IMG/VR virus record: IMGVR_UViG_3300032030_000047
Coordinates: 1 to 64,000 of that record
Strand: one strand, 5' to 3'
DNA length: 64,000 nt
Source of the DNA: a virus
Lineage: Duplodnaviria > Caudoviricetes
Position numbers and translations under genes: made by a program. Shown one piece after another: positions 3,732 to 26,019 of the stretch. Each line of letters starts with the position of its first letter. Position 1 is the first letter of the stretch. The notes under the pieces are model-generated. The model was not told where the DNA came from and ran no database searches. It saw only the letters and a program-made list of their open reading frames with translations.

Positions 3732-5105
3732 TTACTCCTGTGCGATAGCTTCCTGCGCTTCTTCAATATCAGGAGCATCGGCTTCTTCTTTATAAATCCC
3801 TTCTAGAATTTTAAAACTGATGTTTTTCATCTTATATACTTCAAACTTTGAACGGTTCATAATACGTGCAACTACACCTTCGCGCACATGGGACTTTCCA
3901 ATGGGGTCAGGTCCATCATAATACTGTTCAATCTTACGCACTACATATTCGCCGGGATTTACATCCTCAGGAATTACAAAGCGCTCGAATTCCATTACAT
4001 GATTTACGCCCCACTTATCACAATAGGTCTGAATCTGATCAGGAGACAACTCAATTTGCTCGCCATCTTCATTTACCATAGTGATTCGATATACATATAC
4101 TTCACAACAAGGTTTAATTTCAGTAGTCCATCCATCTTCATCTACTACACAAGAAAATGCGCGTTCATACTGTCCATCCTGCTGGCATCCATAGGAGAAA
4201 GTAGTAATATCACCATACATCTTGCTAAACTCTTTATCTTTAATCTTAGAGTTAGCTACTTGTCCCATAATGGGTGCGCCATTCGGCCCTTGGAATCCCA
4301 CGATTTCGTAATAGACTACCATTCCCTTAGGAAGCTTACCTTCAAACTTCGCAGCCATAGCATGGCGGAAATCATCGCTTTCATAGAAGCCACCTTGCCG
4401 CTTACCATCAAGAACAACACGCCGAGTCCCAGTTACATAACCATACTCATAATAATCCTTACCATGTCGCCGCAGAAGCTTATCCAACCAAGTACGCTTC
4501 GTATGAAGCAGAGGAAGATGGCCCGTTCTACCTGAGGTTCCATGCATCTTAAGCGTAAGCTGAATTTCATCACCATTGTGGAACTTATCCAGATTATAGG
4601 CAACCTGCTCAGTATCTACATGTTCAAAGAAAGTCGGCGCATAGTTTACTTTAGCCTTCTTAATCTTTTCACCATGCCATTCTCCACGAGGATTACACTT
4701 AGGAATATACTTTTTACAGATTTCCTCACCATTGAGAACAGTAATCTGATCGCCCGGCTTCAGTTCACTAATGTTCGTGAACTCGGACAGACAAGTAATA
4801 TTCAGATATAGTCCATTAGACTTTTCTCCACGCAACTTAATAGCTTTTACATTGCGCTTATCAGGATCCATATAACCGCCAATGTTATTGCCGTTTTCAT
4901 CCTTCTTACGCACGAGGTTATTAATTTCGCAGAACTTTTCAGACAGCTGCAAATCGCAAGGGAAATATACACCAATATCCCCAATATGAGTATCAAGACC
5001 GACGATTACATCCTCTTCAAATACACGTAGAATCTGAAGGCGGTCAGCATTAGAGTGCGGCCGCAGATCTTTTACTTGTACAACAAAACCACAATGTTCG
5101 CTCAT
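3732..5105 (-). CDS. ATP-dependent RNA ligase with N-terminal OB/tRNA-binding-like domain (DRB0094/Rnl5-like)
   Basis: Motif I KMHGTS, motif IV EGVV, motif V YKMKN; N-terminal HSNADRL OB-type segment. Confidence 0.85.
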   Translation of the reverse strand: MSEHCGFVVQVKDLRPHSNADRLQILRVFEEDVIVGLDTHIGDIGVYFPCDLQLSEKFCEINNLVRKKDENGNNIGGYMDPDKRNVKAIKLRGEKSNGLYLNITCLSEFTNISELKPGDQITVLNGEEICKKYIPKCNPRGEWHGEKIKKAKVNYAPTFFEHVDTEQVAYNLDKFHNGDEIQLTLKMHGTSGRTGHLPLLHTKRTWLDKLLRRHGKDYYEYGYVTGTRRVVLDGKRQGGFYESDDFRHAMAAKFEGKLPKGMVVYYEIVGFQGPNGAPIMGQVANSKIKDKEFSKMYGDITTFSYGCQQDGQYERAFSCVVDEDGWTTEIKPCCEVYVYRITMVNEDGEQIELSPDQIQTYCDKWGVNHVMEFERFVIPEDVNPGEYVVRKIEQYYDGPDPIGKSHVREGVVARIMNRSKFEVYKMKNISFKILEGIYKEEADAPDIEEAQEAIAQE

Positions 5106-5138
5106 TTAAATCATCCTTTCTCTCTTTCTTACATAATA

Positions 5139-5166
5139 ATTATATCATAATTTTAGGAATTATCAA
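5139..5166 (-). promoter_or_regulatory. Sigma-A-like promoter, one of ~17 near-identical copies
   Basis: TTGATA-N16-TATAAT; same TTGAC(T/A)-N16-18-TATAAT motif at 5355, 7180, 9566, 11179, 13678, 14820, 17014, 19178, 22198, 26039, 27938, 28443, 33681, 35332, 41539, 59519. Confidence 0.75.
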
Positions 5167-5378
5167 TCTTTAATCTTTTTGCAATTTCATCCAGTATTAT
5201 ACTACGCATACTGTCATACGCGGAAGATTCATTAGAATCAAAACGAATATAATCTAATAATTCAAAGTACAAACCTCTATTTGAAAACTGGTTTACTTTG
5301 TTTTTATATTCTTCATAAGTAGTCATATACATTTTCTTCCTTTCTTACATAATAATTATATCATAAATTTAGAAAATG

Positions 5379-5594
5379 TCAATTATCCATTTCTCTATGT
5401 TCAATCCGCCATTCACCAGTATCATCATCGCACCAAACAACTAAATTTACACGCTGCCCGTTTTTCAAACCATGTACATAGTTATGTGAATTATAGGATA
5501 GCGGGCCGATTTCTTCAATTGTATCCGCTGCGCCAGAATCAAGCACTAATTCATATATCGTATCTGATAAGTAATCTTTTAATTCATTGCTCAT
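5379..5594 (-). CDS. Hypothetical protein
   Basis: ORF track, overlapping start/stop with neighbour. Confidence 0.6.
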   Translation of the reverse strand: MSNELKDYLSDTIYELVLDSGAADTIEEIGPLSYNSHNYVHGLKNGQRVNLVVWCDDDTGEWRIEHREMDN

Positions 5595-5872
5595 TAATAT
5601 AAATCCTCACTAAATAATTCTTGAATAGTAGGTTCTGTAATATAAGGATTAATTTGATCGTGGAGATAAGCATGTTTCCACGCCTCTACTCTATTATAAA
5701 AATTATCATGCTCATCAAGGAAACCCTGATCATTTTGATTGCTTTCAAAATCATCCTTAGAATATCCAAGTTCTTTTAGAATATAGAATGCATCACAATG
5801 ACGATGCACAGGCAGGATAATTTCTTTATTTTGTTTCTTATCATAAATACGAACCGCCGCGCTAGTAATCAT
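5594..5872 (-). CDS. Hypothetical phage protein
   Basis: ORF track, operon spacing. Confidence 0.65.
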   Translation of the reverse strand: MITSAAVRIYDKKQNKEIILPVHRHCDAFYILKELGYSKDDFESNQNDQGFLDEHDNFYNRVEAWKHAYLHDQINPYITEPTIQELFSEDLY

Positions 5873-5874
5873 TA

Positions 5875-6114
5875 TTATTTCTCCTCTGTCGTAAAGAAGA
5901 ATTCAGTCCATGATCCGACATCATACCAAGTTCTATCATTTTCTGTCCAAGTTCTAATATAATAACTAACAAACGGAGTCTTTTTATTCTCATTCGCTTG
6001 TTTAATAAAATCGTTAATAGAACGATATACATCTGCTGTAGTTTCACAATAAGCAATTTGTCTCTCTATTCCATTATGATTCTTGAACCATAGAGTCATT
6101 TTTCTTTTCCTCAC
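5875..6114 (-). CDS. Hypothetical protein
   Basis: ORF track; true start may be ATG ACT near 6099. Confidence 0.6.
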   Translation of the reverse strand: MRKRKMTLWFKNHNGIERQIAYCETTADVYRSINDFIKQANENKKTPFVSYYIRTWTENDRTWYDVGSWTEFFFTTEEK

Positions 6115-6289
6115 TTTCTTGTATTATTCCATCGTAATTAAGCTGCATTTTGGTTAAAATCTCAAAACCACATTGTGGGCAATTAATATAGGAATTTGCA
6201 TGTATATCTTCTGGTTTATAGCCTAGCAATGCACCGCAATTATTACAGCGGCAAATTAATCCATAGTATCTTGGGCTTAGTATAATCAT
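6074..6289 (-). CDS. Small zinc-ribbon protein
   Basis: CNNC...CPQC. Confidence 0.65.
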   Translation of the reverse strand: MIILSPRYYGLICRCNNCGALLGYKPEDIHANSYINCPQCGFEILTKMQLNYDGIIQESEEKKNDSMVQES

Positions 6290-7008
6290 ACCACTTTACA
6301 GTACCATACAATAGTACATTTTTCTCCTTTTACTTCCTTATGTGCTTTTACTTTCATTCTTAGCTTAAAAGCCATACCAACTTCAAAATTTTTGGTGCCT
6401 GTTTCCCATATATACATATTACCTTCGGCATCACGCATATAATGCGTATGCTTTTCTCCAAAGTGGTCCTCGCGCGTGATATTTTCTTTAACAACGATTT
6501 CTTTTTCAAGCCAATCATTTTCTTTTCCTTGGTAGGTGCTATTACTAGTAACACTCCCATTAAGAAGATTACTGACAAGCTTGGCAACTTCTTCATGCGG
6601 TTTCATCCTATCTTCATAATCTTGCACTTGCTCCCACTTCAATTGAATAGGTTCAATGCCATTTAAAACTTCGGGCGTGGGAAATTTACTAGGAGTATAA
6701 TACCCAAAAGTAGTATTACGCCAAATATTAGTGCGGTCATTTTCAGCCCACCTCTCTACTACTCGTTCGTCTCCTTTATATAAAGTAATATAACCTTTTT
6801 CATCAAATCCAAAAGCATGGCGAGCATTGAAATCCATTAGATTGTTTTTAACTGGTTCATTAGGATACATGCGCTGATACTCTGCGTCAGAATACCAACG
6901 AACTTTTTTAAGTCCCTTTGTCGTAAGTACGTTTACATATAAACGCTTGTTTTCTTCAAATGGCTCACCTTGCTGTTCCAAGTTTTGATACGTCTTAGCA
7001 ACAGGCAT
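6286..7008 (-). CDS. Hypothetical protein, possible C-terminal OB-fold
   Basis: 240-aa ORF with RBS. Confidence 0.7.
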   Translation of the reverse strand: MPVAKTYQNLEQQGEPFEENKRLYVNVLTTKGLKKVRWYSDAEYQRMYPNEPVKNNLMDFNARHAFGFDEKGYITLYKGDERVVERWAENDRTNIWRNTTFGYYTPSKFPTPEVLNGIEPIQLKWEQVQDYEDRMKPHEEVAKLVSNLLNGSVTSNSTYQGKENDWLEKEIVVKENITREDHFGEKHTHYMRDAEGNMYIWETGTKNFEVGMAFKLRMKVKAHKEVKGEKCTIVWYCKVV

Positions 7009-7211
7009 TTGACTTCTCCTCGTTTTCTTTAGTCAGCATTTGTCTATATTTCTCGCGCAATTCTTCATTAGTATATTCTTCATAAGAGGTAAAATGATAC
7101 TGCCTCATAATCTCTTCAACCAGATTTTCAATCATTTCCTTATCCATTTTAATTATCCCCTTTCCCTCTTTCTATAAAAATTATAACATAAATTTAAAAA
7201 AAGTCAAATGG

Positions 7212-7430
7212 TCATTCGACCATTTGACAAAGTTGAAAGGAAGTGAATTTTTGGTTTGGTACTGCGTCTACATAATCCAATAAAGGAATCATATAGATTA
7301 TAGGGTCATTTTCAAGTTGGTATACACATCGTAGCTGTTCTACTAGAGGGTTTCCTGCTTTTGCCATTGCCATTCCTTGCTGGGCAATAGCTGGGATATC
7401 TTGTTCTTCGATAATTTTCTTATTCCACAT
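7212..7430 (-). CDS. Hypothetical protein
   Basis: ORF track. Confidence 0.55.
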   Translation of the reverse strand: MWNKKIIEEQDIPAIAQQGMAMAKAGNPLVEQLRCVYQLENDPIIYMIPLLDYVDAVPNQKFTSFQLCQMVE

Positions 7431-7431
7431 T

Positions 7432-8370
7432 TTATTCTGCCTTTATATTAATATAATTTAATACTTCTTTCATTCCTAATCCACCTTCATCCCAAGGCTT
7501 CATACAATATTCCCATAATTTAGGATGCGTTTTCTTTAATAGCTAGAAACGATTTGGTTCTTTTTCCATATGGCATCCAAATGCACAGAAAATGCAGCCA
7601 GTGCGATCTTCACCAGTTGTTTCTAACTTACCTTTACGATTTTTCTTTATTTCACCATAAACTGATGCATATGGCAGGTTCTTATCTTGAATATATTGTA
7701 AAATATCTTGCTCTGTCCAAAATGATAAAGGACGACTAATCGGTTCAGCGGTATTAAAAGCATTGCAGCCCTGCTGAAGCCATATATTGCGGCGACTAAT
7801 TGATTCTTCGGCGAGAGTTCCTATAATTGGATATCGGCCCGTTTCTTTTTGATATTTATGTGCTGGTTGTTTTTTCATAACATCACAGCAATAGTCACTA
7901 ATATTAAAAGGTGCATCAACTAAGTATGCCCATTTACCATCCCCAAAACCAAACGTCTTGGTAGGAATTTCTCCGCGTAATGTTTTCGCGCGAACAGAAT
8001 TGGGATCACGTTTAGCGGTATATACATATCCTGCTATACGTTTACTAATAATAGGATATCCAAATTCTTCTATTACCTATCTAAACGAACGATTCGGCCG
8101 CCGAATTTCTACATTATCTATAGTTTTAACGAATTCTTTTAATTCTGGATATTCCAAGCCAGTATCAAAAAATACCGCAGGAATGTCAGGATATAAAGAA
8201 CGAGCGATATCCAATAAAACAGTGCTGTCTTTTCCGCCGGAGAAAGATACGTATACTTCACCATTGAAGTGATCGTAAAATTCTCGTATTCGTAATTCTG
8301 TTTTTATGATTTTTGCTTCTAATGGCAACGCCTAAGCCTATTTTAAATCAGTTGCAGTAAATAAAGCCAT
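7432..8370 (-). CDS. PAPS-reductase-family protein (312 aa, code 15, 4 in-frame TAG)
   Basis: SFSGGKDS PP-loop, RTGCIFC; fragments 8077-8328 and 7543-7878 join through TAG: MALFTATDLK(Q)A(Q)ALPLEAK. Confidence 0.85.
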
Positions 8371-8774
8371 TATTCTTCCCTCACTATAAAATCAAATGGC
8401 TGTTTATTCAACCATTGTTCTGAATATTTATTTACATTATAATAATAATACTCACCGTCTGATACATATGCATGTTCAAGATTCTTATCAAAGTCTTCGC
8501 TTTGAATAAACTCAATATACTTTTCTTTAGGCATTAAATAACCGTACTGCGCCATCCAGTCTTCTACTGGGACTGCTTCTAGGAATAAATCATTAATTTC
8601 TACATCATGCAAATATGGTACTTCTTCAGCATCCATATAGTCTTTAGGGATAACAAATATAAACAATCCCTTTTCAGTAAGTTCTGGCGACATTTGATTT
8701 GTAAGTTTTCCAACGCACCATTGTCCATTGTGTTTATATAGGACGCGCATTCCATCGTGAATTTTTAGATCCAT
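8370..8774 (-). CDS. Hypothetical protein
   Basis: 134-aa ORF with RBS. Confidence 0.65.
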   Translation of the reverse strand: MDLKIHDGMRVLYKHNGQWCVGKLTNQMSPELTEKGLFIFVIPKDYMDAEEVPYLHDVEINDLFLEAVPVEDWMAQYGYLMPKEKYIEFIQSEDFDKNLEHAYVSDGEYYYYNVNKYSEQWLNKQPFDFIVREE

Positions 8775-8785: not shown

Positions 8786-9547
8786 TTATAAAATGTATTT
8801 AATATAATAATGCATTAATTCATATTGCATTGATTCAATTAGTTGCAGTCCTTCTGTTTCAATTGCTTGCTGGCTAGCTGTTTTTTTAAACTCATTGCGG
8901 CAATCGTCTAAGAGATTAGCAATATTTTCACAGCCATCATTATAATATGCAGTATTAGATTCTAGCGTATCTCTTTTAGCATATAAAGCTTCTTGATAAT
9001 TAAGAGGTAATAGTTTAAGTAATTGAGATGCGCTAGTAAAATTCAAAAAGTTATTTTTCATACTATATAAACGTAAAGCATGTGAATAACGTTTTCCAGC
9101 GGGCATATTACGCTTAGTAAGCTGATGCGCCATTCCGGCCATTGCGTATAGCATATGAGAATAATTACAATGTACCATTTTATTTAAGATATATTCATTG
9201 TTTAAATATTTTTCCAAAATAGCGGTATATTTAGGTTCATAATATTTATAAGTTCCAACAAAGCATTCAACACTATTTGGAGATGTTTTCTTAAGAAGAT
9301 TAAGCGCAAGACGAATATCTTTATACATACACTTGCCATCTTCGACTTCAAATTCACCGCTATATGGCTCGCGCGCGGTTGATAAATCTTCAATAGTAGG
9401 AAAAACAAATGTAAAAGTATCAATATCGCTATTAGTATTATCTAAACAATAATTTTGACTACCAATTAAGACAGTCATTACTACTTCATATCCTTTATCT
9501 TTGACCCATTGATGGTGCCTTTTAACTGCTTCTATAATATCCATCAT
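8786..9547 (-). CDS. Pol-beta-superfamily nucleotidyltransferase (PF10127/RlaP-like)
   Basis: GSQNY...SDID motif. Confidence 0.75.
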   Translation of the reverse strand: MMDIIEAVKRHHQWVKDKGYEVVMTVLIGSQNYCLDNTNSDIDTFTFVFPTIEDLSTAREPYSGEFEVEDGKCMYKDIRLALNLLKKTSPNSVECFVGTYKYYEPKYTAILEKYLNNEYILNKMVHCNYSHMLYAMAGMAHQLTKRNMPAGKRYSHALRLYSMKNNFLNFTSASQLLKLLPLNYQEALYAKRDTLESNTAYYNDGCENIANLLDDCRNEFKKTASQQAIETEGLQLIESMQYELMHYYIKYIL

Positions 9548-9629: not shown

Positions 9630-11120
9630 TTATAGAACACTAGAAATTGGCGCATAGCGCTCCCCTTCTAGTACAGTTCGCATCATTTCGACTCCATCTT
9701 TACCTGAAAGCACTCCTTCAAGCGCGCTCATAGAGAAGCCGCTGCAATAGGAGAAACCCGGGCCAATGGCTGGTATATTAGGCTGACGAGCATCGAGATT
9801 CCAAAAGATTACCCTTGGTGCGGTATATCCTGCCCACATCCACTCTTTAGTTTTAGCTTCAATGAGCGTATCAATCTGTGAGCGATTCATAGGACGAACA
9901 CGACCCCAGCGATCAAGGGAACGTGCGCCGCAAGTCAAGCCATCATCGAATTCCATATCTGAAAATATGTAAATCGTTTTAGGCATTTCGGAATCTGGCA
10001 CATGATTACGCAGACCAGTCTCCAACAGCATATCAAATACTGCCTCAAGATTCGTATTCTGTCCCCAGTCTGCATCTACTGCACGCTTGAATTTATCATA
10101 GATATCGACGCCTTTAAATTCAACAAGCTGTGGATTGGCGCTAAAGGTAATAAAGTGATTCTGGAACGGGCCTTTTCCACGTTCAGCAATGTATGCGCCC
10201 ATAGAAACCGCGGCTTCCATAGGAGTACCGCTCATACTGCCGCTGACATCAACTACTGCAATGCCAGGCTCTTCACGGCCATTGTAATAATCTTTTAGAT
10301 TATCCCAATACTTCTGCCACGCCTGACGCTCAGTAGCAGAGGGAGTGCGCCATGTACTGAGAATCTGATGCGCGATTTCGACAGGATTCAGTACACTTGC
10401 ATTTACTTTAGCGTCCTTGCGGGACATAAATTCAGCATAGCGCTCCTTAGTTTCCTCGCGGCGCATAAAGGCATTCTTATAGAGAAGTCCTGCGCGAGAA
10501 GGTAGATGATCGAATGCAATCTGATTCCACCGATTCTGGCTCATAAGAGTTTCAACCAGATGGCAAGCTTTACGACCTTCAGAAAGCATTTTACGATACT
10601 CACGTTCGGTCATACCAAATTCGCGCACGAACTTACGCCCACGAATCTTACTCTCTTTAGAAGAGGCATTGATCGAAGGCATCCATTTATAAATAAGATG
10701 ATCTTCATTCTTATCAAGAACACGGAAAATATATCTCATCATTGCGTCTTCGCATGGCGTATCAAATAGTTCAAAAAGGTCATCATAACGACCATAAGTT
10801 GCCACCAGAGGAATTAGGTGTTCCATCTCCCGCTCATAATGAGTAGCTAGCCACTTAATACAGACGCGGAAAAATCGTCTTTCGCCTGCGCCACCGCGCA
10901 CGTCGCGCAGATAGAAGAGGCACTTCAGTGCGAGAGTAGCATTCTCTTCATATGCCTGCTTAAACATATTAATAACATCATCGTCTGAACGATTCCGCAT
11001 AGAACCGCCCATAGCAAACATATCTAGCACCTTATTAAGCGTGGTGACGTGGGTAATAGCGCCATTTTCGGTAAGCGCATAGTTAGTATCCATTTTCAGA
11101 TTCTTTAGTAGTTCGTTCAT
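9630..11120 (-). CDS. DUF2828-family protein, helical N-terminus plus vWA domain (Ro60/TROVE-like architecture)
   Basis: TENGA...LRDVRGGAGER N-terminus; DVSGSM MIDAS, SDMEFD, FWNL; start MNELL after AGGAG. Confidence 0.8.
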   Translation of the reverse strand: MNELLKNLKMDTNYALTENGAITHVTTLNKVLDMFAMGGSMRNRSDDDVINMFKQAYEENATLALKCLFYLRDVRGGAGERRFFRVCIKWLATHYEREMEHLIPLVATYGRYDDLFELFDTPCEDAMMRYIFRVLDKNEDHLIYKWMPSINASSKESKIRGRKFVREFGMTEREYRKMLSEGRKACHLVETLMSQNRWNQIAFDHLPSRAGLLYKNAFMRREETKERYAEFMSRKDAKVNASVLNPVEIAHQILSTWRTPSATERQAWQKYWDNLKDYYNGREEPGIAVVDVSGSMSGTPMEAAVSMGAYIAERGKGPFQNHFITFSANPQLVEFKGVDIYDKFKRAVDADWGQNTNLEAVFDMLLETGLRNHVPDSEMPKTIYIFSDMEFDDGLTCGARSLDRWGRVRPMNRSQIDTLIEAKTKEWMWAGYTAPRVIFWNLDARQPNIPAIGPGFSYCSGFSMSALEGVLSGKDGVEMMRTVLEGERYAPISSVL

Positions 11121-11179
11121 TTTCTTTCTCCTTTTCATCTTAGCCTTTAACAAGGCCGTAGGTTTTCTTTATATTTATA

Positions 11180-11590
11180 TTATATCATAATTTCAGAGGA
11201 AGTCAAATGTTTAAGTTCTTCAATAAAATCCTCATATTTCTTCAAATAATTAGAATCAATTTTAATGATTTCATAGCTATCAGCATAATCGCCACCATCA
11301 TGCTCAATAGAACCATACCATCCTGGGCCAGTATATTTTTCCCAATTTAGAATGTTTTGTTCCCATTCGGTATAATACAAATAATCCCAATCTTCTTTAC
11401 ATGTAACATTAAAAATTCTCATCCAAGTTTCATCATCAGGAAGGGAAATACCACTTTCTGCCACATAACGTGTACCAGCCAGCGCAACTGCATCATGTCT
11501 GATTGCACTAGCCTTATCATAATGATGAGTTCCATCTATAGATACATAAACTGGCCTAGAATTAATTACTGATTCATATTTAATCTGCAT
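11180..11590 (-). CDS. Hypothetical protein
   Basis: ORF track. Confidence 0.6.
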   Translation of the reverse strand: MQIKYESVINSRPVYVSIDGTHHYDKASAIRHDAVALAGTRYVAESGISLPDDETWMRIFNVTCKEDWDYLYYTEWEQNILNWEKYTGPGWYGSIEHDGGDYADSYEIIKIDSNYLKKYEDFIEELKHLTSSEIMI

Positions 11591-12143
11591 CTATTTCCCT
11601 CTTATTCCATATATCTTCTTTAATCTGATCCAAGTTTACTGGATAGCAATTATGAGCATCCATTTCTACATGATAACACATTTTATCCCAATCTGCCCAC
11701 TTATCTTTGGTATGGCTGTGGCCACAAAGATTAGCTACTTTGCGCCAAGCCTCGTTATTTCCGGTCAAAGTGGGATAATGCGATAGGTAGAAACTCCATT
11801 TTCCACTCTTAATAACAGTAGCATAAGAATCCCTTTCTGTGCCGAGAAGCTGGATTTTGGGGCACGCGGGTAGGATTTTTCCTATCTTTCCTAAAGTATC
11901 GTGATTCCCGAGAATCCATATTTGGTGTCCCTTAAGCCGCTGCAGATAAGGAATAGCAGTATCAACATCACTAAGAGCAATATCACCTAGATTATAAACA
12001 AAATCTTCGTCTCTTACAACCGAGTTCCAACGTTCCACGATAGCTTCGCACATTTCTTCTGTAGAAAAGAAGCCACGCGGTTCGTATAGGAACGGTTTGT
12101 TATGCATTAAATGCAAATCAGAAGTAAACCAAATATCTCCCAT
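11580..12143 (-). CDS. Metallophosphoesterase (possible RNA 2',3'-phosphatase)
   Basis: SDLH, NLGD, GNHD, SHYP, GHSH motifs; adjacent to the kinase. Confidence 0.85.
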   Translation of the reverse strand: MGDIWFTSDLHLMHNKPFLYEPRGFFSTEEMCEAIVERWNSVVRDEDFVYNLGDIALSDVDTAIPYLQRLKGHQIWILGNHDTLGKIGKILPACPKIQLLGTERDSYATVIKSGKWSFYLSHYPTLTGNNEAWRKVANLCGHSHTKDKWADWDKMCYHVEMDAHNCYPVNLDQIKEDIWNKREIDAD

Positions 12144-12144
12144 T

Positions 12145-12672
12145 TTATGACTCCTTCCAGTAGGGATCCATCATAAAGGAGAAATCTCCTTTCTTATCTC
12201 CTACTTCAATAATTTCCGTGGCGCGGCGATCTTCTTCAAGAGTCGGCGCCTTAAAGGAGCGGAACATGCCACGAATTACATCAGGGCCTACATAAGCCAA
12301 GCCCTCGCGCGTTGCGTCCCGCTCACAACATTCAGTATACAAGGTATAGAATACGACATACTTAATTTCATAATCTACGCCAATGCGGTCAAGCGCATTG
12401 GTAAGCTTCTTGCGCGAAAACTCATTAAGATGAGTAGCATCTGCAATTACATCAAAACCATAAACAAGAGTCTGCGCCAAGGTGCCTACAAACTTTTTGA
12501 AAACTTCCTTTTCATGGGCAAAATAATCTTCGCCTTCTTTAAGCATAGAAAATCGAATCTCATCACGAGAAACATAACGAATATCCTGCTCACTATGCTC
12601 TGCAATGAAAGCATCGCTCCAAGTGCTTTTGCCACAAGCGCTCGGGCCGCAAAGAATATATAAAATCGCCAT
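12145..12672 (-). CDS. P-loop polynucleotide kinase (T4 Pnk kinase-like, AAA_33)
   Basis: GPSACGKST, SRDEIR, DATH. Confidence 0.85.
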   Translation of the reverse strand: MAILYILCGPSACGKSTWSDAFIAEHSEQDIRYVSRDEIRFSMLKEGEDYFAHEKEVFKKFVGTLAQTLVYGFDVIADATHLNEFSRKKLTNALDRIGVDYEIKYVVFYTLYTECCERDATREGLAYVGPDVIRGMFRSFKAPTLEEDRRATEIIEVGDKKGDFSFMMDPYWKES

Positions 12673-13532
12673 TAGTAATTCCTCCTAAGAATAAACTGTG
12701 CATGAGTATGTAATGTAGGAATAAAAAATAGATTTTTCCAAGCCTCTGTGTAATATGGAAGTTGATAATGTGTCTCAAAAATGGGAGTATAATCACCAAC
12801 TAAGTCAATGAGATCTTTTAACATCCAACTAAAATAATCCTCTTTCATTTCTTGTTCCCAGCCGTTATCTTTCCATTGATATTTCATAAGAAAATGAATA
12901 AAATTGCGCCAGATTGCAATAGTACTATGTTCTTTTTCAAATTCTTTAATATATTTTGGATCAATATTAAGCTGGCTAATGATATGCTCACGCTGAGTAG
13001 TAGTTACAATATTTTTATTATAATCAAAGTACATATCTCGAATAGTAATGTACTTCGGCTGCAATTCTTCAATAAGGCGCCGGATAGTTTCTTTACCGTC
13101 AGGACTAGAGGAAAAAACCTCATGTAACACAGAGGAAAAGTTAATGCAGATTTCATCAGGCCGATAATGCTGTTTTGCCATAGCAATCATATCTTCAAAA
13201 CTATCATGTCGATCTGCAAAAGTTCTTTCTTTATGAAAGAAGAAGGTATTTTTATCCGCAGGAGACTCAAGTTTAGTCCAAGCCTCAACAATCAGATCAT
13301 CGTTAATGTCATAACCGTAGAAAGTAGTATTGGGAAACAGCGGCGCGAGCATACGAATCATAGCACCATCGGCGCATCCGAAGTCAATAACAAGCTTCGC
13401 GCCGATGATTTTATCCATAAAGAAAGCTTTATCCCATACCGACTTACTCATTTCTTCAGTATAAATATCAAAATTCATTTTTACGCTCCTTCGTATATTC
13501 TTTCGGCATTTTGCCATATAGGATAAACTCAA
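12672..13532 (-). CDS. Class I SAM-dependent methyltransferase
   Basis: VIDFGCADG, YGYD, SSVLHEV; start could be MNFDI. Confidence 0.8.
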   Translation of the reverse strand: MSLSYMAKCRKNIRRSVKMNFDIYTEEMSKSVWDKAFFMDKIIGAKLVIDFGCADGAMIRMLAPLFPNTTFYGYDINDDLIVEAWTKLESPADKNTFFFHKERTFADRHDSFEDMIAMAKQHYRPDEICINFSSVLHEVFSSSPDGKETIRRLIEELQPKYITIRDMYFDYNKNIVTTTQREHIISQLNIDPKYIKEFEKEHSTIAIWRNFIHFLMKYQWKDNGWEQEMKEDYFSWMLKDLIDLVGDYTPIFETHYQLPYYTEAWKNLFFIPTLHTHAQFILRRNY

Positions 13533-15953: not shown

Positions 15954-15982
15954 TTCTCAGATACTTCCTTTCTTTATTTAAG

Positions 15983-16096
15983 CAGTCCCTGTTGGAATCG
16001 GACCAACACGTGTGGAGTCATGGTGCCAGATTGGAGAGTTGAACTCCAAATACCCTATCTGACAAGTCCACTGCGCTACCATTACGCTAAGGGACT
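15983..16096 (-). tRNA. tRNA-Gln(UUG) interrupted by a 43-nt insert (16021-16063) between positions 34 and 35
   Basis: AGTCCCT/AGGGACT-G acceptor, D arm, GTGGA-CTT|insert|TGAC-TCCAC, T arm GTTGG-TCCGATT-CCAAC. Confidence 0.8.
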
Positions 16097-16099
16097 ATA

Positions 16100-16202
16100 A
16101 ATGCGGGTGAGGATTTGAACCTCACATAGTTGGCTACCCGCTCAATTTAATGGCAAAATGTCACCAACCTCGCGCAGCGTCTACCCATTTCGCCACCGCA
16201 TT
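16100..16202 (-). ncRNA. tRNA-like RNA with acceptor, D and T arms but a long non-canonical arm in place of the anticodon arm
   Basis: AATGCGG/CCGCATT, GGCGAAATGGGTAGACGC, GTGAGG-TTCAAAT-CCTCAC. Confidence 0.6.
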
Positions 16203-16617: not shown

Positions 16618-16713
16618 TAGGCCATTTAAATTTGAAGGACTTGAACCTTCTCAAAAATTTATTAAAGCAAATTTTCTTTATCCTGTTATAAAAAACTATG
16701 CTGTAATGGCCTA
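16618..16713 (-). ncRNA. Y-RNA-like RNA (terminal stem, CAGCA motif, residual T arm)
   Basis: TAGGCCATT/AATGGCCTA stem, ACAGCA, GAAGG-TTCAAGT-CCTTC. Confidence 0.6.
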
Positions 16714-16716
16714 AAC

Positions 16717-16830
16717 TAGACAGCTTCATAATTAATTGCTCTACCAATTGAGCTACTTCTCCAATGGAGAAGATTGGATTTGAACCAATGACGCATTCTT
16801 TCTATGTAAGCAAACTGCTGTAACTGTCTA
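16717..16830 (-). ncRNA. YrlA-like Y RNA (circularly permuted tRNA mimic)
   Basis: TAGACAGT/GCTGTCTA stem; T arm, then CTTCTCC-ATT-GGAGAAG closed acceptor, then D arm GCTC-AATTGGTA-GAGC. Confidence 0.8.
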
Positions 16831-18151: not shown

Positions 18152-18222
18152 TGGAGATACGGGGTGACGCTCCCCGGCCTGAAGCTTGCAAAGCTACTGT
18201 TCTACTGTTATACTATATCCCC
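18152..18222 (-). tRNA. tRNA-Ala(UGC), atypical T loop
   Basis: GGGGATA/TATCTCC with G3-U70; T loop AGCGTCA. Confidence 0.8.
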
Positions 18223-19920: not shown

Positions 19921-20163
19921 ATATAGTAGATTTGGGATTCCACCCCGTGGTCTACCACACCACACCTCTGCTATCTTGATGAGCTAAAGCGACACGTCTA
20001 CGCATGAGGCACTAACATAAGGCGACAAACATTTTACGCAGTTTTCCCATACCTGCAACCTTAACCTACCTGGGTCTAACGTTATACACCGGTGTTGTGT
20101 CACGGATTTCTTTCCACCCGGCTTAGTCCTACGGCTATTCTTTGGAAGGGGAATAGCACCCAG

Positions 20164-20237
20164 AGCCATCGAAGAGACTTGAACTCCTGACCCACACACT
20201 TCTTTATGTGCCACTCTACCAACTGAGCTACGACGGC
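20164..20237 (-). tRNA. tRNA body with unreadable anticodon loop (undetermined or pseudo)
   Basis: Intact acceptor, D and T arms; loop TAAAGAAG is 8 nt and lacks U33. Confidence 0.65.
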
Positions 20238-20817: not shown

Positions 20818-20859
20818 ATTATAGGTACCTCCAAAATGAATTGCGCTTTTCGCGCGAAG

Positions 20860-21401
20860 CCTCCAGCCGACGATTCGAACGCCGATTTTGTGGTCACGTC
20901 TCCAATACTTATCCTTCTACCTCCATTAAAATTTTTTCTACTTCATAATCTGAAGCATAGTGTACTATAGAGGATGCATTGTTCTTTGGCGCTACAAAAC
21001 GTAAAGTTTTTCGTGTACTACATTCAGTAATGGGAATGAGATACCCTTGTCCATTCCAATTGGTATAAAAATAATCAATTTCAGTATCTAAATATTTTCG
21101 ATGATTATCATATTGTCCTTGTTTAACATTTCGAGTAGAGCGACATTCAAATGTTACTCCCGAAATATCTTCATCAATTGGATGGCAACTTTTACATTGA
21201 ATACGAATAAACTTACCGTTTATATCTGCTACAAAATCATATCTACAAGGAGAAATTGGTTGACTTACTACAATACCTAATTTAGTAAAATCTAATTGGC
21301 ATTGTAATTCAGTTATTGTGCCTTTTTGTATTGTATCCATATTTTTCCTAGGATAAGTTTAGTGACGTAGCCACACGTTCTGTCCCTTAGACTAGCCGGA
21401 G
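20860..21401 (-). tRNA. tRNA-Arg(ACG) split by a 470-nt insert (20896-21365) that carries an endonuclease ORF
   Basis: CTCCGGC/GCTGGAG acceptor, D arm GGACAGAAC as in Arg(UCU), TGTGG-CTACG|insert|GA-CCACA, CGGCG-TTCGAAT-CGTCG. Confidence 0.78.
20909..21340 (-). mobile_element. PD-(D/E)XK homing endonuclease (I-Ssp6803I/PDDEXK_5-like) inside the tRNA-Arg insert
   Basis: KGTITE...RYDFV...IQCKS...IDYF pattern. Confidence 0.8.
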
Positions 21402-21761: not shown

Positions 21762-21764
21762 ATA

Positions 21765-21990: not shown

Positions 21991-21997
21991 GGTAGAG

Positions 21998-22070: not shown

Positions 22071-22229
22071 AAATGGGAGAAGTCAGTCATTCCTAATGCT
22101 CCCTGGAGTTCAATTTATATCCCGCCTAAAAATGACACTCATCGGCGGCGTACAAGAAAGTTTTCTTTCTCGGGATCTCTCCCCTTGGTACATAAATATT
22201 ATAACAAAATTTTTATTAAAAGTCAAATA

Positions 22230-24065: not shown

Positions 24066-24079
24066 TATGCATTACTCCA

Positions 24080-24463
24080 TTACTTGGTTAGTGTTACGGT
24101 TACTCGGAAAATCCAGTCTGCATTATCTGCATTTAGATTAAAACTATAGGTTTCGCCGCCATCTATAGAGAACCAATCTCCATCGGGCGCTTTAGCTTCC
24201 CATCTATAAGACTTGTTATAATCGGCGGGATTATAATAATCGGATTGTTCTGTAGTAACATTGGCAGTAAGCGTTACTGTAGCGCCTTTCTCTAGTGTCT
24301 GATTAGCTTGCGCGCAACTAATTGATACATGCCAACCAGGGTCTGGTAAAGCCATTGTGACATTGGGGTCGTAGCCCTCACTTGTCGCGGTGCCCTCCGA
24401 CAGAGCCGGAATAACTGCAAAACATAGCGCTAGAGTCATAAGTAGTACGATTAGTTTCTTCAT
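24080..24463 (-). CDS. Secreted Ig-like protein
   Basis: Signal peptide, beta-rich with YRWE and FRVTV. Confidence 0.7.
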   Translation of the reverse strand: MKKLIVLLMTLALCFAVIPALSEGTATSEGYDPNVTMALPDPGWHVSISCAQANQTLEKGATVTLTANVTTEQSDYYNPADYNKSYRWEAKAPDGDWFSIDGGETYSFNLNADNADWIFRVTVTLTK

Positions 24464-24562
24464 TGTGTATTCCTCCTTTTATTTTAAAATAAGGACGCCA
24501 ATAATGGCGTCCATACATCGCAGCCAAAAGGCGGTAGGTTCCAAGCTCCGCCTAATGGAAAG

Positions 24563-24646
24563 TCCGGGTGGTGGGATTCGAACCCACAAGGAGCTTCGCT
24601 CCGACAGATTTTAAGTCTGTTGCCTGGGCCGTTCGGCTACACCCGG
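24563..24646 (-). tRNA. tRNA-Leu(UAA), long variable arm
   Basis: Canonical type II cloverleaf. Confidence 0.9.
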
Positions 24647-24740
24647 ATAAAATACAGGATTCGTTCGCCACACGTCTATGGTCAAGCAGAGTATTAAGTG
24701 AAGTAGCTTTCTCATCACTCCTGTAAATTTGATAGTATAA

Positions 24741-24799
24741 AACCCCGTATGCGAACTATCATTGCGCTCTAGAAACGCCTGCTTTGCTGTCTCGGGGAT
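24741..24799 (-). ncRNA. Mini Y-RNA-like element
   Basis: CCCCG/CGGGG stem followed by AGACAGCAA. Confidence 0.5.
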
Positions 24800-24809
24800 C
24801 AATTTACGG

Positions 24810-25345
24810 ATTCTTCATCCGGGATTAATTTATGGGATATTCATCCCATTCTTGATTTCGGGGAATCTCCCCTGCGGCCAAGAGAAGCCTTATCTACGGC
24901 GCGAGAGGCGTGCTAGGTTCTTGACCTAGCGGGTTGCGCTTCGGCGTAGGGGTGGACCAAGCCTTTCAACTAGCCCAAACGGTAGTTTTTCAGTCATACT
25001 GGACATCCTGTAATAGAAAATGCAACTAGTATTCAGCACCATTTCTCGATGCTGGCATCTCCTAATAGGAAGCACGTACTCATTAAGCACATACCACGAC
25101 TAGTTCCGACATTTATAACGCGCGCGTCTCAGTCGTCAGCAATCGCGCTAGATGAATGGTCTATTTTTTACTTGCTACTGCCATCACCATCGAAAGCGCA
25201 AGCTATATATTTATCTAACCCCTATAGTGGGTGGTTTTCGCGTTTTATATACCGATTCGGAAAACATAGAGACCGGTTGTCCGTTTCATATGGTAGAATA
25301 CATCGACCGGTACGGGCGTCCGGTCGGAACGGCTCATACTACCAA
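24810..25345 (-). ncRNA. Candidate large structured ncRNA (~535 nt)
   Basis: No credible ORF; at least 7 hairpins, e.g. CGACCGG/CCGGTCG, CAGCATC/GGTGCTG, GCTAGGT/ACCTAGC, ATGGGAT/ATCCCAT. Confidence 0.55.
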
Positions 25346-25351
25346 AAATAC

Positions 25352-25413
25352 TAGGCACATTAAAAAAACTTTTAATAGCAAGTTATTCCTCATAGGTTTG
25401 CTGCGTGTGCCTA
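25352..25413 (-). ncRNA. Mini Y-RNA-like element
   Basis: TAGGCAC/GTGCCTA stem followed by ACGCAGCAA. Confidence 0.55.
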
Positions 25414-25417
25414 TAAC

Positions 25418-25478
25418 ATGACACCTTATATTTTATCAGAATATATGTAAATGATTATAAAATTGCTGTCGGTGTCAT
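25418..25478 (-). ncRNA. Mini Y-RNA-like element
   Basis: ATGACACC/GGTGTCAT stem followed by GACAGCAA. Confidence 0.55.
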
Positions 25479-25479
25479 T

Positions 25480-25730
25480 TTAATTACCGAGGCCCTCGCA
25501 TATACGTAATATGTGGATACCTCGTGCCTCCTGTACCTTACAGGTCGGTCTGTCTATTCTGTATACATGCTATTTTAGTATCACTCTTTTGGCATAGCTG
25601 CCTCACCACGGCTGTCGTCGCTCACGAGACCTGCGTCCGTAGATAGTATGGGCGTACCATTGCTATCTATTACCACAGCGCCGGACCTCAACCGGCCAGT
25701 CATATCCTGTCAATTCAGGCTTTATGTGGT
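25480..25730 (-). ncRNA. Candidate structured ncRNA (~250 nt)
   Basis: Stems ACCACA/TGTGGT, TAGATAG/CTATCTA, CCTGTA/TACAGG, CGAGG/CCTCG. Confidence 0.45.
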
Positions 25731-25734
25731 TGAA

Positions 25735-25809
25735 TGGTACCCTATCCCGGGGATGATCCGGGCCTTCGTGCTTGAAGGGCACGCGACTTAACCGATTGTC
25801 CAATAGGGC
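25735..25809 (-). tRNA. tRNA-Glu(UUC), C33 and atypical T loop
   Basis: CGTGC-CCTTCAA-GCACG; T loop ATCATCC; CCA. Confidence 0.75.
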
Positions 25810-25901
25810 ATATCAAAGAGGGCACGTTTTATAGTGCGGTGCCCGAGCACTAACACTCTTTCACCAAATGCTGCAGAGGTGAAGGGAATGTTGAAGTAGC
25901 G

Positions 25902-26019
25902 CGGGAGATAGAGGAGTTGAACCTCTCTAGCGCGGTTAATTGTCTGATATAGGGCCTGCCCCTATTATATCTCTTTGGTATCAGGCCAGCCGCGTGCTAA
26001 TCCGATTAGCGAATCTCCC
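25902..26019 (-). tRNA. tRNA-Asn(GUU) interrupted by a 47-nt insert (25940-25986) between positions 34 and 35
   Basis: GGGAGAT/ATCTCCC-G acceptor, CGCGG-CTG|insert|TTAA-CCGCG, AGAGG-TTCAACT-CCTCT. Confidence 0.8.

Follow-up and report, generated by a model that had tools for sequence, protein, structure and literature searches.

Putative Mobile Introns in the Anticodon Loops of Three tRNA Genes from an Uncultured Phage of the Rumen and Their Possible Removal without a Ribozyme

Introduction

To our knowledge, all established tRNA introns of bacteria and their phages are self-splicing. tRNA damage inflicted by host nucleases is repaired by Pnkp and Rnl1 of phage T4 and by the bacterial Pnkp/Hen1 system, for neither of which we know of a function in intron splicing. 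Structures resembling tRNA may also serve as processing signals; an example is the mascRNA of MALAT1, which is cut out by RNase P and RNase Z. The closest described counterpart of the present locus is found in the Lak megaphages. Devoto et al. (2019, Nat Microbiol, PMC6784885) reported “enigmatic” tRNA introns there and stated of one that it “may encode a tRNA”. Phage tRNA introns of this kind have barely been described before, and the notion of a first-pass annotation that the inserts dealt with here would constitute a new intron class does not hold entirely in view of the Lak report.

In the uncultured rumen phage under study, three tRNA genes are split inside the anticodon loop. The window, i.e., the whole stretch of DNA that was analyzed, comprises 64,000 nucleotides of an 87,623-nt contig. 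With a probability of roughly 0.5, the three genes would be functional, and their inserts would be mobile introns without a ribozyme, falling into two structural classes.

Interrupted tRNA Genes and Their Boundaries

In its default mode, ARAGORN predicts 24 tRNAs on the minus strand, with Gln, Asn, and Arg(ACG) absent from the output. The intron mode adds c[15982,16096], c[25901,26019], and c[20859,21401] with inserts of 43, 47, and 470 nt, respectively, labeled Pro, Thr, and Ser because the insert boundaries are ambiguous to the program. After in-silico deletion of positions 16021-16063, 25940-25986, and 20896-21365, Gln(ttg), Asn(gtt), and Arg(acg) are called. The genes, all from ARAGORN intron mode, and their introns are as follows:

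15982 to 16096, minus strand: tRNA-Gln(UUG) gene; 5′ exon 16064-16096, 3′ exon 15982-16020
16021 to 16063, minus strand: Gln intron, 43 nt, tRNA-shaped, inserted between U34 and U35
20859 to 21401, minus strand: tRNA-Arg(ACG) gene; 5′ exon 21366-21401, 3′ exon 20859-20895
20896 to 21365, minus strand: Arg intron, 470 nt, inserted between G36 and G37
25901 to 26019, minus strand: tRNA-Asn(GUU) gene; 5′ exon 25987-26019, 3′ exon 25901-25939
25940 to 25986, minus strand: Asn intron, 47 nt, tRNA-shaped, inserted between G34 and U35

The anatomy of the inserts, their exact boundaries, their conservation, and their polymorphism are matters of direct observation. The boundaries are fixed exactly by naturally uninterrupted alleles in related phages. 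The uninterrupted gene L180:1179-1251 equals the joined Arg exons of the window through base 71, the two bases past the acceptor stem being AC in L180 and GC in the window; likewise, L181:10212-10283 equals the joined exons of an interrupted Asn allele in L189, and 35 uninterrupted copies of the Gln gene are found in relatives. The three interruptions proposed by the first-pass annotation are thus real and precisely placed, as judged from ARAGORN, splicing in silico, and natural intronless alleles. Its statement that no intact gene for Gln(UUG), Asn(GUU), or Arg(ACG) is present can be extended from the window to the whole contig, which is about 48% complete, yet contains the tRNA array from end to end. 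Among relatives with complete genomes, G001 likewise has its Gln gene, and G004 its Asn and Trp genes, solely in interrupted form. The predicted folds of the inserts and precursor contain no bulge-helix-bulge (BHB) motif, in agreement with the initial reading, no EndA gene was found on the contig, and no RtcB gene was found either.

Two Structural Classes of Inserts

The Gln and Asn introns are both tRNA-shaped (class 1), whereas the Arg insert, grouped with them in the first-pass annotation, is structurally distinct and represents a homing-endonuclease element (class 2). In the consensus fold of the window Gln insert with its L220 variant, a 7-bp acceptor-like stem starting at base 1 is followed by a 5-bp T stem with the 7-nt loop UUCAACU and an A-CCA tail; U precedes the insert at position −1, and G occupies position +1. 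In the minimum free energy (MFE) fold of the single sequence, the 7-bp stem and the 4-nt tail are preserved, and the hairpin differs slightly (z=-2.6). All seven stem positions are paired, which is matched by 127 of 20000 shuffles. An identical copy of the insert is present in L232, and the L220 variant differs by three changes, none of which breaks a pair. The Asn insert is less regular, with an acceptor-like stem of seven positions (six pairs and one C-A mismatch), a hairpin at the T-arm position whose degenerate 5-nt loop lacks the T-loop consensus, and an A-A tail. Homologous inserts at the Asn site are found in L104/L182, L161/L002, and L189; when the three Asn alleles are compared by eye, both partners of the pairs at stem positions 3 and 4 are seen to vary, and in the L104 allele a hairpin G-C pair is changed to G-U.

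The Arg insert consists of 25 nt, a 432-nt endonuclease ORF of the PF11645 family, and 13 nt, that is, 38 non-coding nucleotides:

20909 to 21340, minus strand: ORF within the Arg intron, 143 amino acids, PD-(D/E)XK homing endonuclease of the I-Ssp6803I family
20896 to 20916, minus strand: 3′ end of the Arg intron, containing the 3′ strand of the 9-bp ORF-closing stem, which overlaps the stop codon, followed by the tail

The ORF matches PF11645 over its full length (E=5e-17) and phrog_5018 (E=2e-18), with a weak match to 2OST. The last five nucleotides of the intron pair with anticodon bases 34-36 and intron bases 1-2, so that a single helix contains the two splice sites at a distance of 3 bp; the MFE fold of the whole precursor recovers this helix as well as the ORF-closing stem (z=-4.9). 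The same anticodon-pairing rule is followed by different sequences in L061/L073, L197, and L198. In all, four class-2 introns, which interrupt genes for Arg, Asn, and Ile, retain the helix spanning the 5′ splice site, and their endonuclease ORFs are 42-45% identical.

In relatives, inserts of 175-189 nt are also found (L182:4730-4992 and L196:5883-6169), the motifs of which presumably resemble small group I introns. Self-splicing of the RNA, by a strongly reduced or novel ribozyme in the short inserts or by a group I core that overlaps the Arg ORF, would be in line with these longer inserts, with the precedent of established tRNA introns, and with the unusually stable Arg precursor; the lack of an Rfam match to the Arg intron is weak evidence to the contrary, because the putative small group I introns of relatives were missed by Rfam as well. 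It is, nevertheless, highly improbable. All known self-splicing cores are much longer than 43 or 47 nt, and the non-coding ends of the Arg intron, with little room for a conserved core in the diverged class-2 ORFs, offer no space for one either, as the first-pass annotation had argued for group I. Furthermore, the inserts end in A or U instead of the terminal G of group I introns, the 5′ exons of Asn and Arg end in G and not in U, and the tRNA shape is the only thing that the unrelated insert sequences have in common.

Recurrence and Selection in Relatives

The proposed search of related phages revealed intron-less as well as intron-containing alleles. At the tRNA-Gln locus in rumen metagenomes, 34 interrupted copies carry more than 20 distinct inserts of at least six unrelated families, inserted at 34/35 or 35/36, and uninterrupted alleles are as common as interrupted ones. 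Bases 1-7 of each insert form 6-7 of 7 possible pairs with the seven bases preceding a 2- or 4-nt tail (ACCA, GCCA, AU, AC, CC, or UC), and the same tRNA-shaped design recurs in the Trp and Leu(UAA) genes of relatives. Depending on the family, the observed stem is matched by 0.4-8% of shuffles; in three insert families, both partners have changed in 9 of 22, 7 of 20, and 3 of 21 pairs of the consensus fold. On the basis of these comparisons, the nested insert fold is seen to be under selection.

Besides the inserts, tRNA-like modules of the phage include Y-RNA-like matches and orphan T-arm motifs. Together with the encoded DUF2828 “RNA-binding” protein and the covariation of the nested folds, they would fit a scenario in which the nested element is the true product, acting as a tRNA-like decoy or Y-RNA-like partner, while the outer tRNA is a processing scaffold whose halves are discarded. 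This is very unlikely, since it leaves the covariation of exon stems and the exactly restored anticodon loop unaccounted for, and intronless alleles are as frequent as interrupted ones.

Removal of the insert converts 34 of the 34 interrupted Gln copies into tRNA-Gln(UUG). Among their 13 distinct exon sequences, seven pairs are variable, five of which are paired throughout, and 2 of 273 pair cells are broken. Judged by their exons, the interrupted tRNA genes are not decaying, nor are inserts confined to this genome. In L058, an HNH gene and a second whole tRNA-Gln replace bases 27-34 of the resident tRNA-Gln. Disruption of the genes by tRNA-like mobile elements and a homing-endonuclease cassette, with the phage relying on host tRNAs, is a distinctly unlikely explanation: the anticodon region of tRNA-Gln is indeed a hot spot of mobile DNA, inserts are polymorphic between close relatives, and host tRNAs are usable by the phage, but dead genes would hardly keep a near-perfect cloverleaf in 34 copies, base-exact insertions that restore a 7-nt loop every time, compensatory changes within the inserts themselves, and one and the same insert on diverged Gln exon backgrounds (L220 and the window).

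RNA Repair Genes

About 11 kb from the tRNA array, in the window as well as in relatives, an RNA ligase with complete nucleotidyltransferase motifs is encoded. The RNA repair genes of the window and their neighbors are the following:

3732 to 5105, minus strand: ATP-dependent RNA ligase with an N-terminal OB domain and a nucleotidyltransferase domain
8786 to 9547, minus strand: RlaP-family nucleotidyltransferase, RNA-repair associated (PF10127, E=9e-7; phrog_388)
9630 to 11153, minus strand: DUF2828/DUF7788 protein (PF25043, E=6e-40; PF11443, E=2e-24; phrog_850, E=1e-110)
11580 to 12143, minus strand: calcineurin-like metallophosphoesterase, candidate 3′-end healing enzyme (PF00149; phrog_547, E=2e-38)
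12145 to 12672, minus strand: polynucleotide 5′-kinase of the T4 Pnk type (PF13671, E=5e-15; phrog_505)
12672 to 13532, minus strand: SAM-dependent methyltransferase with only generic methyltransferase Pfam matches

Profile and motif matches confirm the earlier assignments of ligase, kinase, phosphoesterase, methyltransferase, and nucleotidyltransferase. The ligase contains the motifs KMHG (KxHG), EGVV, and KMK (KxK) and matches phrog_968 (E=2.5e-64), PF09414 marginally (27.8 bits), and PF21189 (19.2 bits). For the kinase, the best PDB matches are T4 Pnk 1LY1/1LTQ (E=7e-7), and orthologs that are 59-95% identical occur in G001-G005; the methyltransferase has no Hen1 match in PDB. The phrog_850 match places the DUF2828 protein in a phage “RNA-binding protein” family, with a weak vWA match (PF13519 VWA_2, E=0.0099; 16.9 bits, below the 27-bit cut-off).

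The earlier link between healing and sealing genes and introns was not upheld. The kinase and a ligase of the OB and PF09414 type are present in every relative tested, including G005 without an interrupted tRNA, and the intron-bearing relatives lack a sequence homolog of the window ligase. Being lineage-core genes present in an intron-free relative, ligase, kinase, phosphoesterase, and nucleotidyltransferase are not markers of a dedicated splicing system, and the co-occurrence of ligase and kinase with introns lends no support to one.

The complete heal-and-seal set adjoining the array, with T4 Pnk-like kinase, metallophosphoesterase, ligase, and methyltransferase, would be in line with the cyclic-phosphate route favored by the first-pass annotation. 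A metal-independent endonuclease, either of the phage itself or an anticodon-nuclease-like enzyme of the host, would cut both sites to leave 2′,3′-cyclic phosphate and 5′-OH ends, which would be healed by phosphoesterase and Pnk-type kinase and sealed by the ligase, possibly with 2′-O-methylation at the junction. Such a route would also cover the Arg intron, and the Gln and Asn inserts directly follow base 34, which coincides with the cutting positions of zymocin/PaT-type and colicin E5-type ribotoxins. It is regarded as rather unlikely, given that no candidate endonuclease is found among the ORFs scanned, EndA is absent from the contig, and tRNA mimicry from base +1 to the CCA tail is left unaccounted for; moreover, G005, although free of introns, has the cassette just as well, as expected for repair of host-inflicted tRNA damage.

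Proposed Splicing Route

Removal of the inserts at the RNA level by proteins would be the most economical reading, because the inserts are real, without BHB, not decaying, and located in sole isoacceptor copies, and because the two short ones and the non-coding ends of the Arg insert are too small for group I. It is about an even chance that RNase P makes the 5′ cut, another endonuclease the 3′ cut, and the phage ligase seals the exons. The minimal substrate of RNase P is an acceptor/T-arm minihelix with NCCA, and the tRNA shape of the short inserts points to cutting of the RNase P type. In class 1, the insert is a nested tRNA mimic, with the acceptor-like stem beginning at base +1, the T-arm-like hairpin, and an N-CCA or N-N tail. 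Host RNase P would cut just 5′ of insert base 1, leaving a 3′-OH on the 5′ exon; a second endonuclease, RNase Z-like or other, would cut past the tail and provide the 3′ exon with a 5′-phosphate. The stems of the tRNA itself would keep both halves in place, and the break would be sealed by the phage ATP-dependent RNA ligase in the way phage ligases seal anticodon-loop nicks. Since such ends are 3′-OH and 5′-phosphate, the ligase would be needed, and kinase and phosphoesterase would not.

The 3′ splice site is located one or three nucleotides past the nested “discriminator”. In most bacteria, RNase Z cuts directly after the discriminator, and the 3′ nuclease is for this reason not explained by RNase Z. 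The Arg intron, not being tRNA-shaped, would need a nuclease other than that of class 1, a double-strand-specific RNase being the simplest guess; the stagger between its two splice sites is 3 nt, however, and that of RNase III is typically 2 nt. If protein splicing holds true, ordinary tRNA-trimming enzymes together with an RNA ligase would remove ribozyme-free introns.

Comparison with Known Systems

Like the present inserts, the Lak introns interrupt the anticodon region, vary in presence between close genomes, are conserved in sequence where present, and have no identified ribozyme or mechanism (PMC6784885). The lineages differ: genomes are about 180 kb long with 38% GC in the present one, and about 540 kb long with 26% GC in Lak. 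Set against the published description of Lak, the rumen phage inserts show in addition covariation and an exact boundary rule, by which the first base of the insert is also the first base of the stem and the tail is N-CCA or N-N; furthermore, a single site accommodates many independent families, and a second class bears an endonuclease.

Bacterial tRNA group I introns share the anticodon-loop location and the mobile pattern of presence and absence, and I-Ssp6803I of the tRNA-fMet intron and the Arg-intron endonuclease are both members of PF11645; what is missing here is a ribozyme core, a terminal G, and, in Asn and Arg, the U at the 5′ splice site. The resemblance to T4 Pnkp and Rnl1 or bacterial Pnkp/Hen1 lies in the encoded T4 Pnk-like kinase, phosphoesterase, and ATP-dependent ligase and in the proposed joining step, which would be the same sealing of an anticodon-loop nick; in contrast to T4, the window ligase is of the OB and PF09414 type and not Rnl1, and in contrast to Pnkp/Hen1, the methyltransferase has no Hen1 similarity.

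Short anticodon-loop introns whose proposed removal is protein-dependent and followed by ligation recall the archaeal and eukaryal BHB introns (EndA/TSEN with RtcB or Trl1), albeit without the motif and without EndA or RtcB genes, and at positions 34/35 and 36/37 instead of 37/38. Plant mitochondrial t-elements (PMC1920247) are likewise non-decoding tRNA mimics that set exact cuts by the tRNA-end-processing enzymes RNase P and RNase Z in a longer transcript. t-elements and mascRNA punctuate mRNAs or lncRNAs, and their flanks are never rejoined, whereas here the mimic is located inside another tRNA, the flanks of which must be ligated.

Interrupted tRNA Genes and Their Uninterrupted Alleles

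The 87,623-nt contig, of which the window is the first 64 kb, is estimated to be about 48% complete. In the window, the tRNA array spans positions ~15,980 to ~33,230 on the minus strand. Default ARAGORN detects 24 tRNAs and Rfam adds one tRNA-Ala(UGC), none of them being a tRNA-Gln, tRNA-Asn, or tRNA-Arg(ACG). In intron mode, ARAGORN adds c[15982,16096] and c[25901,26019], and with a slightly relaxed threshold c[20859,21401]; because of boundary ambiguity the three interrupted genes are labeled Pro, Thr, and Ser. Removal of the following inserts restores a 7-nt anticodon loop with the cognate anticodon.

16021-16063, minus strand: Gln insert, 43 nt; upon removal, ARAGORN reports Gln(ttg)
25940-25986, minus strand: Asn insert, 47 nt; upon removal, ARAGORN reports Asn(gtt)
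20896-21365, minus strand: Arg insert, 470 nt; upon removal, ARAGORN reports Arg(acg)

Uninterrupted counterparts are found in nature. Up to base 71, the joined Arg exons of the window equal an uninterrupted gene of a related phage (L180:1179-1251); the acceptor stem is then followed by two bases that are AC in the relative and GC in the window. An uninterrupted tRNA-Asn gene (L181:10212-10283) is identical to the joined exons of an interrupted Asn allele of another phage (L189), and the uninterrupted tRNA-Gln gene is present in 35 locus copies in related rumen phages. The three junctions proposed in the first-pass annotation are thereby confirmed, as is the identity of each isoacceptor. The search of related phages suggested there has thus yielded both intronless and intron-bearing alleles; presence or absence of the insert is polymorphic among close relatives, and the insert sequence is conserved. 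Intact Gln(UUG), Asn, and Arg(ACG) genes, which that annotation reported as absent from the array, are also lacking on the rest of the contig, where no further tRNAs were found.

Several other elements of the array deserve mention. The tRNA-Ala(UGC) missed by default ARAGORN (18152-18222, minus strand; Rfam, 45 bits) has a G3-U70 pair and a non-canonical T loop. The tRNA at 20163-20237 (minus strand; Rfam tRNA, 48.6 bits) has an 8-nt anticodon loop, given by ARAGORN as "aaga", and could be either a four-base decoder or a tRNA with an aberrant loop. An odd tRNA-like element is situated between tRNA-Ser(GCU) and tRNA-Gln (16099-16202, minus strand). Its T arm and its acceptor pairing are clean, but no strand was found that would complete an anticodon stem; it is reported only by ARAGORN at a relaxed threshold, as an implausible intron-containing Phe(aaa).

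The tRNA-Shaped Gln and Asn Inserts

The Gln insert opens at base 1 with a 7-bp stem, whose 3′ strand is abutted by an adjoining 5-bp stem with a 7-nt UUCAACU loop, and it ends in a single-stranded A-CCA; as modeled, it has the make-up of a tRNA acceptor/T-arm minihelix, and its 3′ end resembles a mature one. For the Asn insert the same plan is predicted, with six of seven pairs (one mismatch), a degenerate loop, and an A-A tail. When the complete precursors are folded in silico, the host cloverleaf persists, with the nested element branching off the anticodon loop. A tRNA or minihelix fold is thus obtained for the Gln insert, less cleanly for the Asn insert, and not for the Arg insert, which is therefore not filed with the tRNA-shaped introns.

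The minimal substrate of RNase P consists of a coaxial 7-bp acceptor stem and 5-bp T stem, a T loop, and a single-stranded 3′ NCCA. All of these features are predicted for the Gln insert, whose context comprises a 12-bp coaxial stack, U at −1, G at +1, and ACCA; the Asn insert has the stems, with the tail A-A and without the T-loop consensus. A fold of this kind might also suggest that the nested element itself is the real product. This explanation is considered very unlikely, as the exons, too, behave like functional sequence (see below).

The Gln 5′ exon was used to scan IMG/VR and the JGI metagenomes, with some contigs occurring in both collections. The scan yielded 34 interrupted tRNA-Gln locus copies with more than 20 distinct inserts, which belong to at least six unrelated sequence families and are sited between tRNA positions 34/35 or 35/36. 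In every insert at this locus, bases 1-7 form six or seven of seven possible pairs with the seven bases before the tail, and the tail is either N-CCA (ACCA, GCCA) or N-N (AU, AC, CC, UC). The observed stem was reached in 0.4-8% of shuffles, depending on the family. In three insert families, both sides had changed in 9 of 22, 7 of 20, and 3 of 21 consensus pairs, respectively. The same design is found in the Trp (75 nt, ACCA) and Leu(UAA) (47 nt, ACCA) genes of relatives, and in two further Asn alleles, read by eye, the stems change on both sides. As judged from these comparisons, the nested fold is under selection.

The 43-nt insert of the window recurs unchanged in one metagenomic locus (L232) and with three substitutions, none of which breaks a pair, in another (L220), there within a tRNA-Gln of different T arm; both copies come from metagenomes, and no further one was found in IMG/VR. 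The insert is, hence, not restricted to this genome, a restriction which, together with decay, would have spoken against the initial proposal.

Decay is not seen either. Each of the 34 interrupted Gln copies yields a valid tRNA-Gln(UUG) after removal of the insert. Among their 13 distinct exon sequences, seven stem pairs vary, five of which are paired in every sequence; of the 273 pair cells, only 2 lack pairing. Some complete or near-complete relatives have no phage copy besides the interrupted one, as is the case for Gln in the genome G001 and for Asn and Trp in G004. The notion that the inserts simply mark dead tRNA genes is quite unlikely in the light of these counts; from their sequences, the interrupted genes are alive.

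The Arg Intron

The Arg intron is made up of 25 nt, a 432-nt ORF, and 13 nt. The ORF matches PF11645 (PD-(D/E)XK_5; E=5e-17) over positions 1-137 of the 138-position profile; a weak 2OST match is confined to the N-terminal half (residues 5-73). PF11645 also includes I-Ssp6803I, a homing endonuclease from a cyanobacterial tRNA-fMet group I intron (PMC3384342). Intronless alleles of the Arg gene occur in L180, L178, and other related loci. By its sequence, the Arg insert is classified as a putative homing-endonuclease mobile intron of the I-Ssp6803I family.

The loop containing the ORF is closed by a 9-bp stem, and a further helix joins the 3′-terminal five bases of the intron to anticodon bases 34-36 and intron bases 1-2. 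Both helices are recovered in the minimum free energy fold of the whole precursor (z=−4.9), and the second one would place both splice sites in a single helix, 3 bp apart. Three more PF11645 introns, in Asn (L061/L073 and L197) and Ile (L198) genes of relatives, follow the same rule with different letters; all are sited at 36/37, and base 34 is paired with the last intron base. The tRNA-shaped inserts, in contrast, are found at 34/35 and 35/36, and the end structures differ as well. No link was found that would make the short inserts shrunken endonuclease-bearing introns.

A separate arrangement is seen in some relatives (L058:4496-5070; also L035, L051, L202, and L246). There, an HNH endonuclease ORF with an in-frame TAG interrupts the resident tRNA-Gln after base 26; it is succeeded by another tRNA-Gln(UUG), which is complete and differs from the first, and then by the remainder of the resident gene from base 35 onward. 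A replacement tRNA is thus supplied by the endonuclease cassette itself.

Known Intron Classes

Group I introns possess a catalytic core (P3-P9) of roughly 150 nt or more; the 5′ exon ends in U, forming the U-G pair of P1, and G is the last intron base. Such a core is ruled out by size in the Gln and Asn inserts (43 and 47 nt) and in the 25 plus 13 nt outside the Arg ORF, whose interior would be the only room for it. None of the three inserts ends in G, the final base being A in Gln and Asn and U in Arg, and the 5′ exons end in U (Gln) or G (Asn, Arg). An Rfam search at E≤10, including the Arg intron, gave no match. This negative result is weak, since a putative small group I intron (L182) is missed equally. 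Self-splicing is the least probable of the explanations considered.

The insert of L182:4730-4992, a suppressor tRNA(CUA) gene, and that of L196:5883-6169, a tRNA-Leu gene, both in relatives, are 175 and 189 nt long and share motifs which we take to resemble the conserved core of small group I introns of the Azoarcus type; the L182 insert is not recognized by Rfam.

In the predicted folds, a bulge-helix-bulge intron is dismissed for want of 3-nt bulges, as the splice sites of the Gln and Asn genes are located at the base of the nested stem and those of the Arg gene within a continuous helix. The splicing endonuclease EndA (PF01974) has no match in the 87.6-kb contig, with controls matched in archaea, and RtcB was looked for and not found. 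The first-pass observations that the short inserts have no room for a group I core and that no insert forms a canonical bulge-helix-bulge are thus borne out.

The RNA-Repair Genes

Two genes of the set were characterized as follows:

3732-5105: RNA ligase with OB and nucleotidyltransferase domains; KMHG, EGVV, and KMK motifs; phrog_968, E=2.5e-64
12145-12672: kinase; the best PDB matches are T4 polynucleotide kinase

By motifs I, IV, and V, the product of the former is a predicted ATP-dependent RNA ligase; its PF09414 score is just above the cut-off. Genes for a metallophosphoesterase, a SAM methyltransferase, an RlaP nucleotidyltransferase, and a DUF2828 "RNA-binding" protein were confirmed, the methyltransferase having generic methyltransferase matches only and no match in PDB to Hen1, the 3′-terminal 2′-O-methyltransferase of Pnkp/Hen1-type repair systems. 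Kinase orthologs, 59-95% identical, are present in all five relatives (G001-G005), including the intron-free G005. One PF09414-family ligase each is found in the four relatives searched (G001, G003, G004, and G005); that of G001, the one inspected, has the OB plus nucleotidyltransferase architecture. No sequence homolog of the window ligase was detected in G001-G005, and its gene lies at the same relative position as those of the relatives, ~11 kb from the Gln end of the array.

An RNA healing and sealing set dedicated to the introns had been suspected initially. The genes are real; the link to the introns does not hold, as G005, a complete 181-kb genome with no interrupted tRNA, encodes kinase and ligase as well, so that co-occurrence cannot separate splicing from repair. 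The cassette is not evidence for a dedicated splicing system. It looks, from gene content, like a standing RNA-repair system of the phage lineage and may make such introns tolerable. Among the small ORFs in and around the array, no extra nucleases or homing endonucleases were found by Pfam.

A Possible Splicing Route

A pathway of RNase P, a second endonuclease, and the phage ligase is assigned a probability of about 0.5. The nested mimic would set the 5′ splice site exactly at the point where RNase P cuts a pre-tRNA, and cleavage would leave a 5′ exon with a 3′-OH. A second endonucleolytic cut past the tail would generate a 3′ exon with a 5′-phosphate. The halves, held together by the acceptor and anticodon stems, would then be sealed by the ATP-dependent RNA ligase; since 3′-OH and 5′-phosphate ends are direct ligase substrates, neither kinase nor phosphoesterase would be needed. 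A variant that would draw on these two enzymes, with cyclic-phosphate ends being healed and then sealed, is regarded as unlikely.

The weak point of the proposed RNase P route is the 3′ cut, which is 1 or 3 nt past the nested discriminator. The RNase Z of most bacteria cuts elsewhere; the Thermotoga enzyme is known to cut after CCA. A model with RNase P cutting one base upstream and RNase Z after the discriminator, which reproduces the Gln loop for some 34/35 families, was rejected as a rule for all inserts; it gives the wrong anticodon for the 35/36 families and fails with N-CCA tails.

A wider proposal, still tentative and held at somewhat less than even odds, is that of a new, ribozyme-free tRNA splicing. 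Since the intron itself is a tRNA mimic, it would be excised by the cell's tRNA end-processing enzymes, that is, RNase P and, at the 3′ site, an RNase Z-type enzyme cutting after N-CCA or N-N, and the phage ligase would rejoin the exons. Such introns may originate from capture, by the repair ligase, of small tRNA-like RNAs into loops cut by host anticodon nucleases, and they may persist because the inserts shield the tRNA gene from homing endonucleases targeting the site. The Arg class would use instead the helix setting both splice sites 3 bp apart.

Other Features of the Phage

TAG is apparently a sense codon in the late/structural genes (window 33706-64000, contig to 71363). With readthrough of 15 TAGs, the frame 61782-71363 stays open over 3194 codons, 12 long frames merge likewise, and a PAPS-reductase-like early gene (7432-8391) needs one TAG readthrough. 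The suppressor tRNA(CUA) at 33145-33233 (minus strand) combines a Gln-like acceptor (A1-U72, G73) with a long and unusual variable arm, features that would fit TAG=Gln.

Two permuted tRNA-like modules (~16620-16800 and ~26720-26870, minus strand), with sub-threshold Rfam matches to YrlA (Y-RNA-like), have the order T arm, acceptor 3′ strand, short loop, acceptor 5′ strand, and D arm; together with the DUF2828/DUF7788 "RNA-binding" protein (9630-11153), they may form a phage Ro/Y-RNA-like pair. A 1.1-kb GC-rich non-coding stretch (24650-25735, minus strand) between tRNA-Glu and tRNA-Leu(UAA) contains a full-length match of the orphan Rfam motif cow-rumen-3 (24951-25095, minus strand; 107 bits), and a cow-rumen-4 match (33618-33676, minus strand) is located upstream of the suppressor tRNA. 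This phage group is accordingly a source, at least in part, of these orphan motifs. The array region also encodes a protein of the peptidase-U32 family (28902-29825, minus strand), the family of tRNA/rRNA hydroxylases, and a radical SAM/SPASM enzyme (31509-32819, minus strand).

Comparison with Known tRNA Introns

To our knowledge, every established tRNA intron of bacteria and phages self-splices, and protein-dependent tRNA splicing is regarded as an archaeal and eukaryotic trait. If the proposed route is true, a third way of tRNA splicing would exist in bacteria and viruses, assembled from ordinary tRNA-processing enzymes and a repair ligase, and a function would emerge for the RNA ligases that are so puzzlingly abundant in large phages. 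The window is a good test bed: two structural classes are present in three genes, the smallest member measures 43 nt and has a minihelix design ending in a full ACCA, the repair cassette is encoded in its entirety, and intronless alleles from nature can serve as controls. With this design, the maturation of tRNAs or guide RNAs could also be placed under the control of a ligase.

The claim of a new intron class has to be narrowed. tRNA introns have been reported in Lak megaphages and called enigmatic, and one may itself encode a tRNA (Devoto et al. 2019, PMC6784885); later mechanistic work was not found in the literature on tRNA introns, phages, and tRNA-processing enzymes. The kind of intron is, hence, already known though unexplained, while the splicing route would be categorically new if demonstrated. 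With the "enigmatic" introns of the Lak type, the Gln and Asn inserts of the window share the anticodon-loop site, the tRNA-like fold, and the presence/absence polymorphism.
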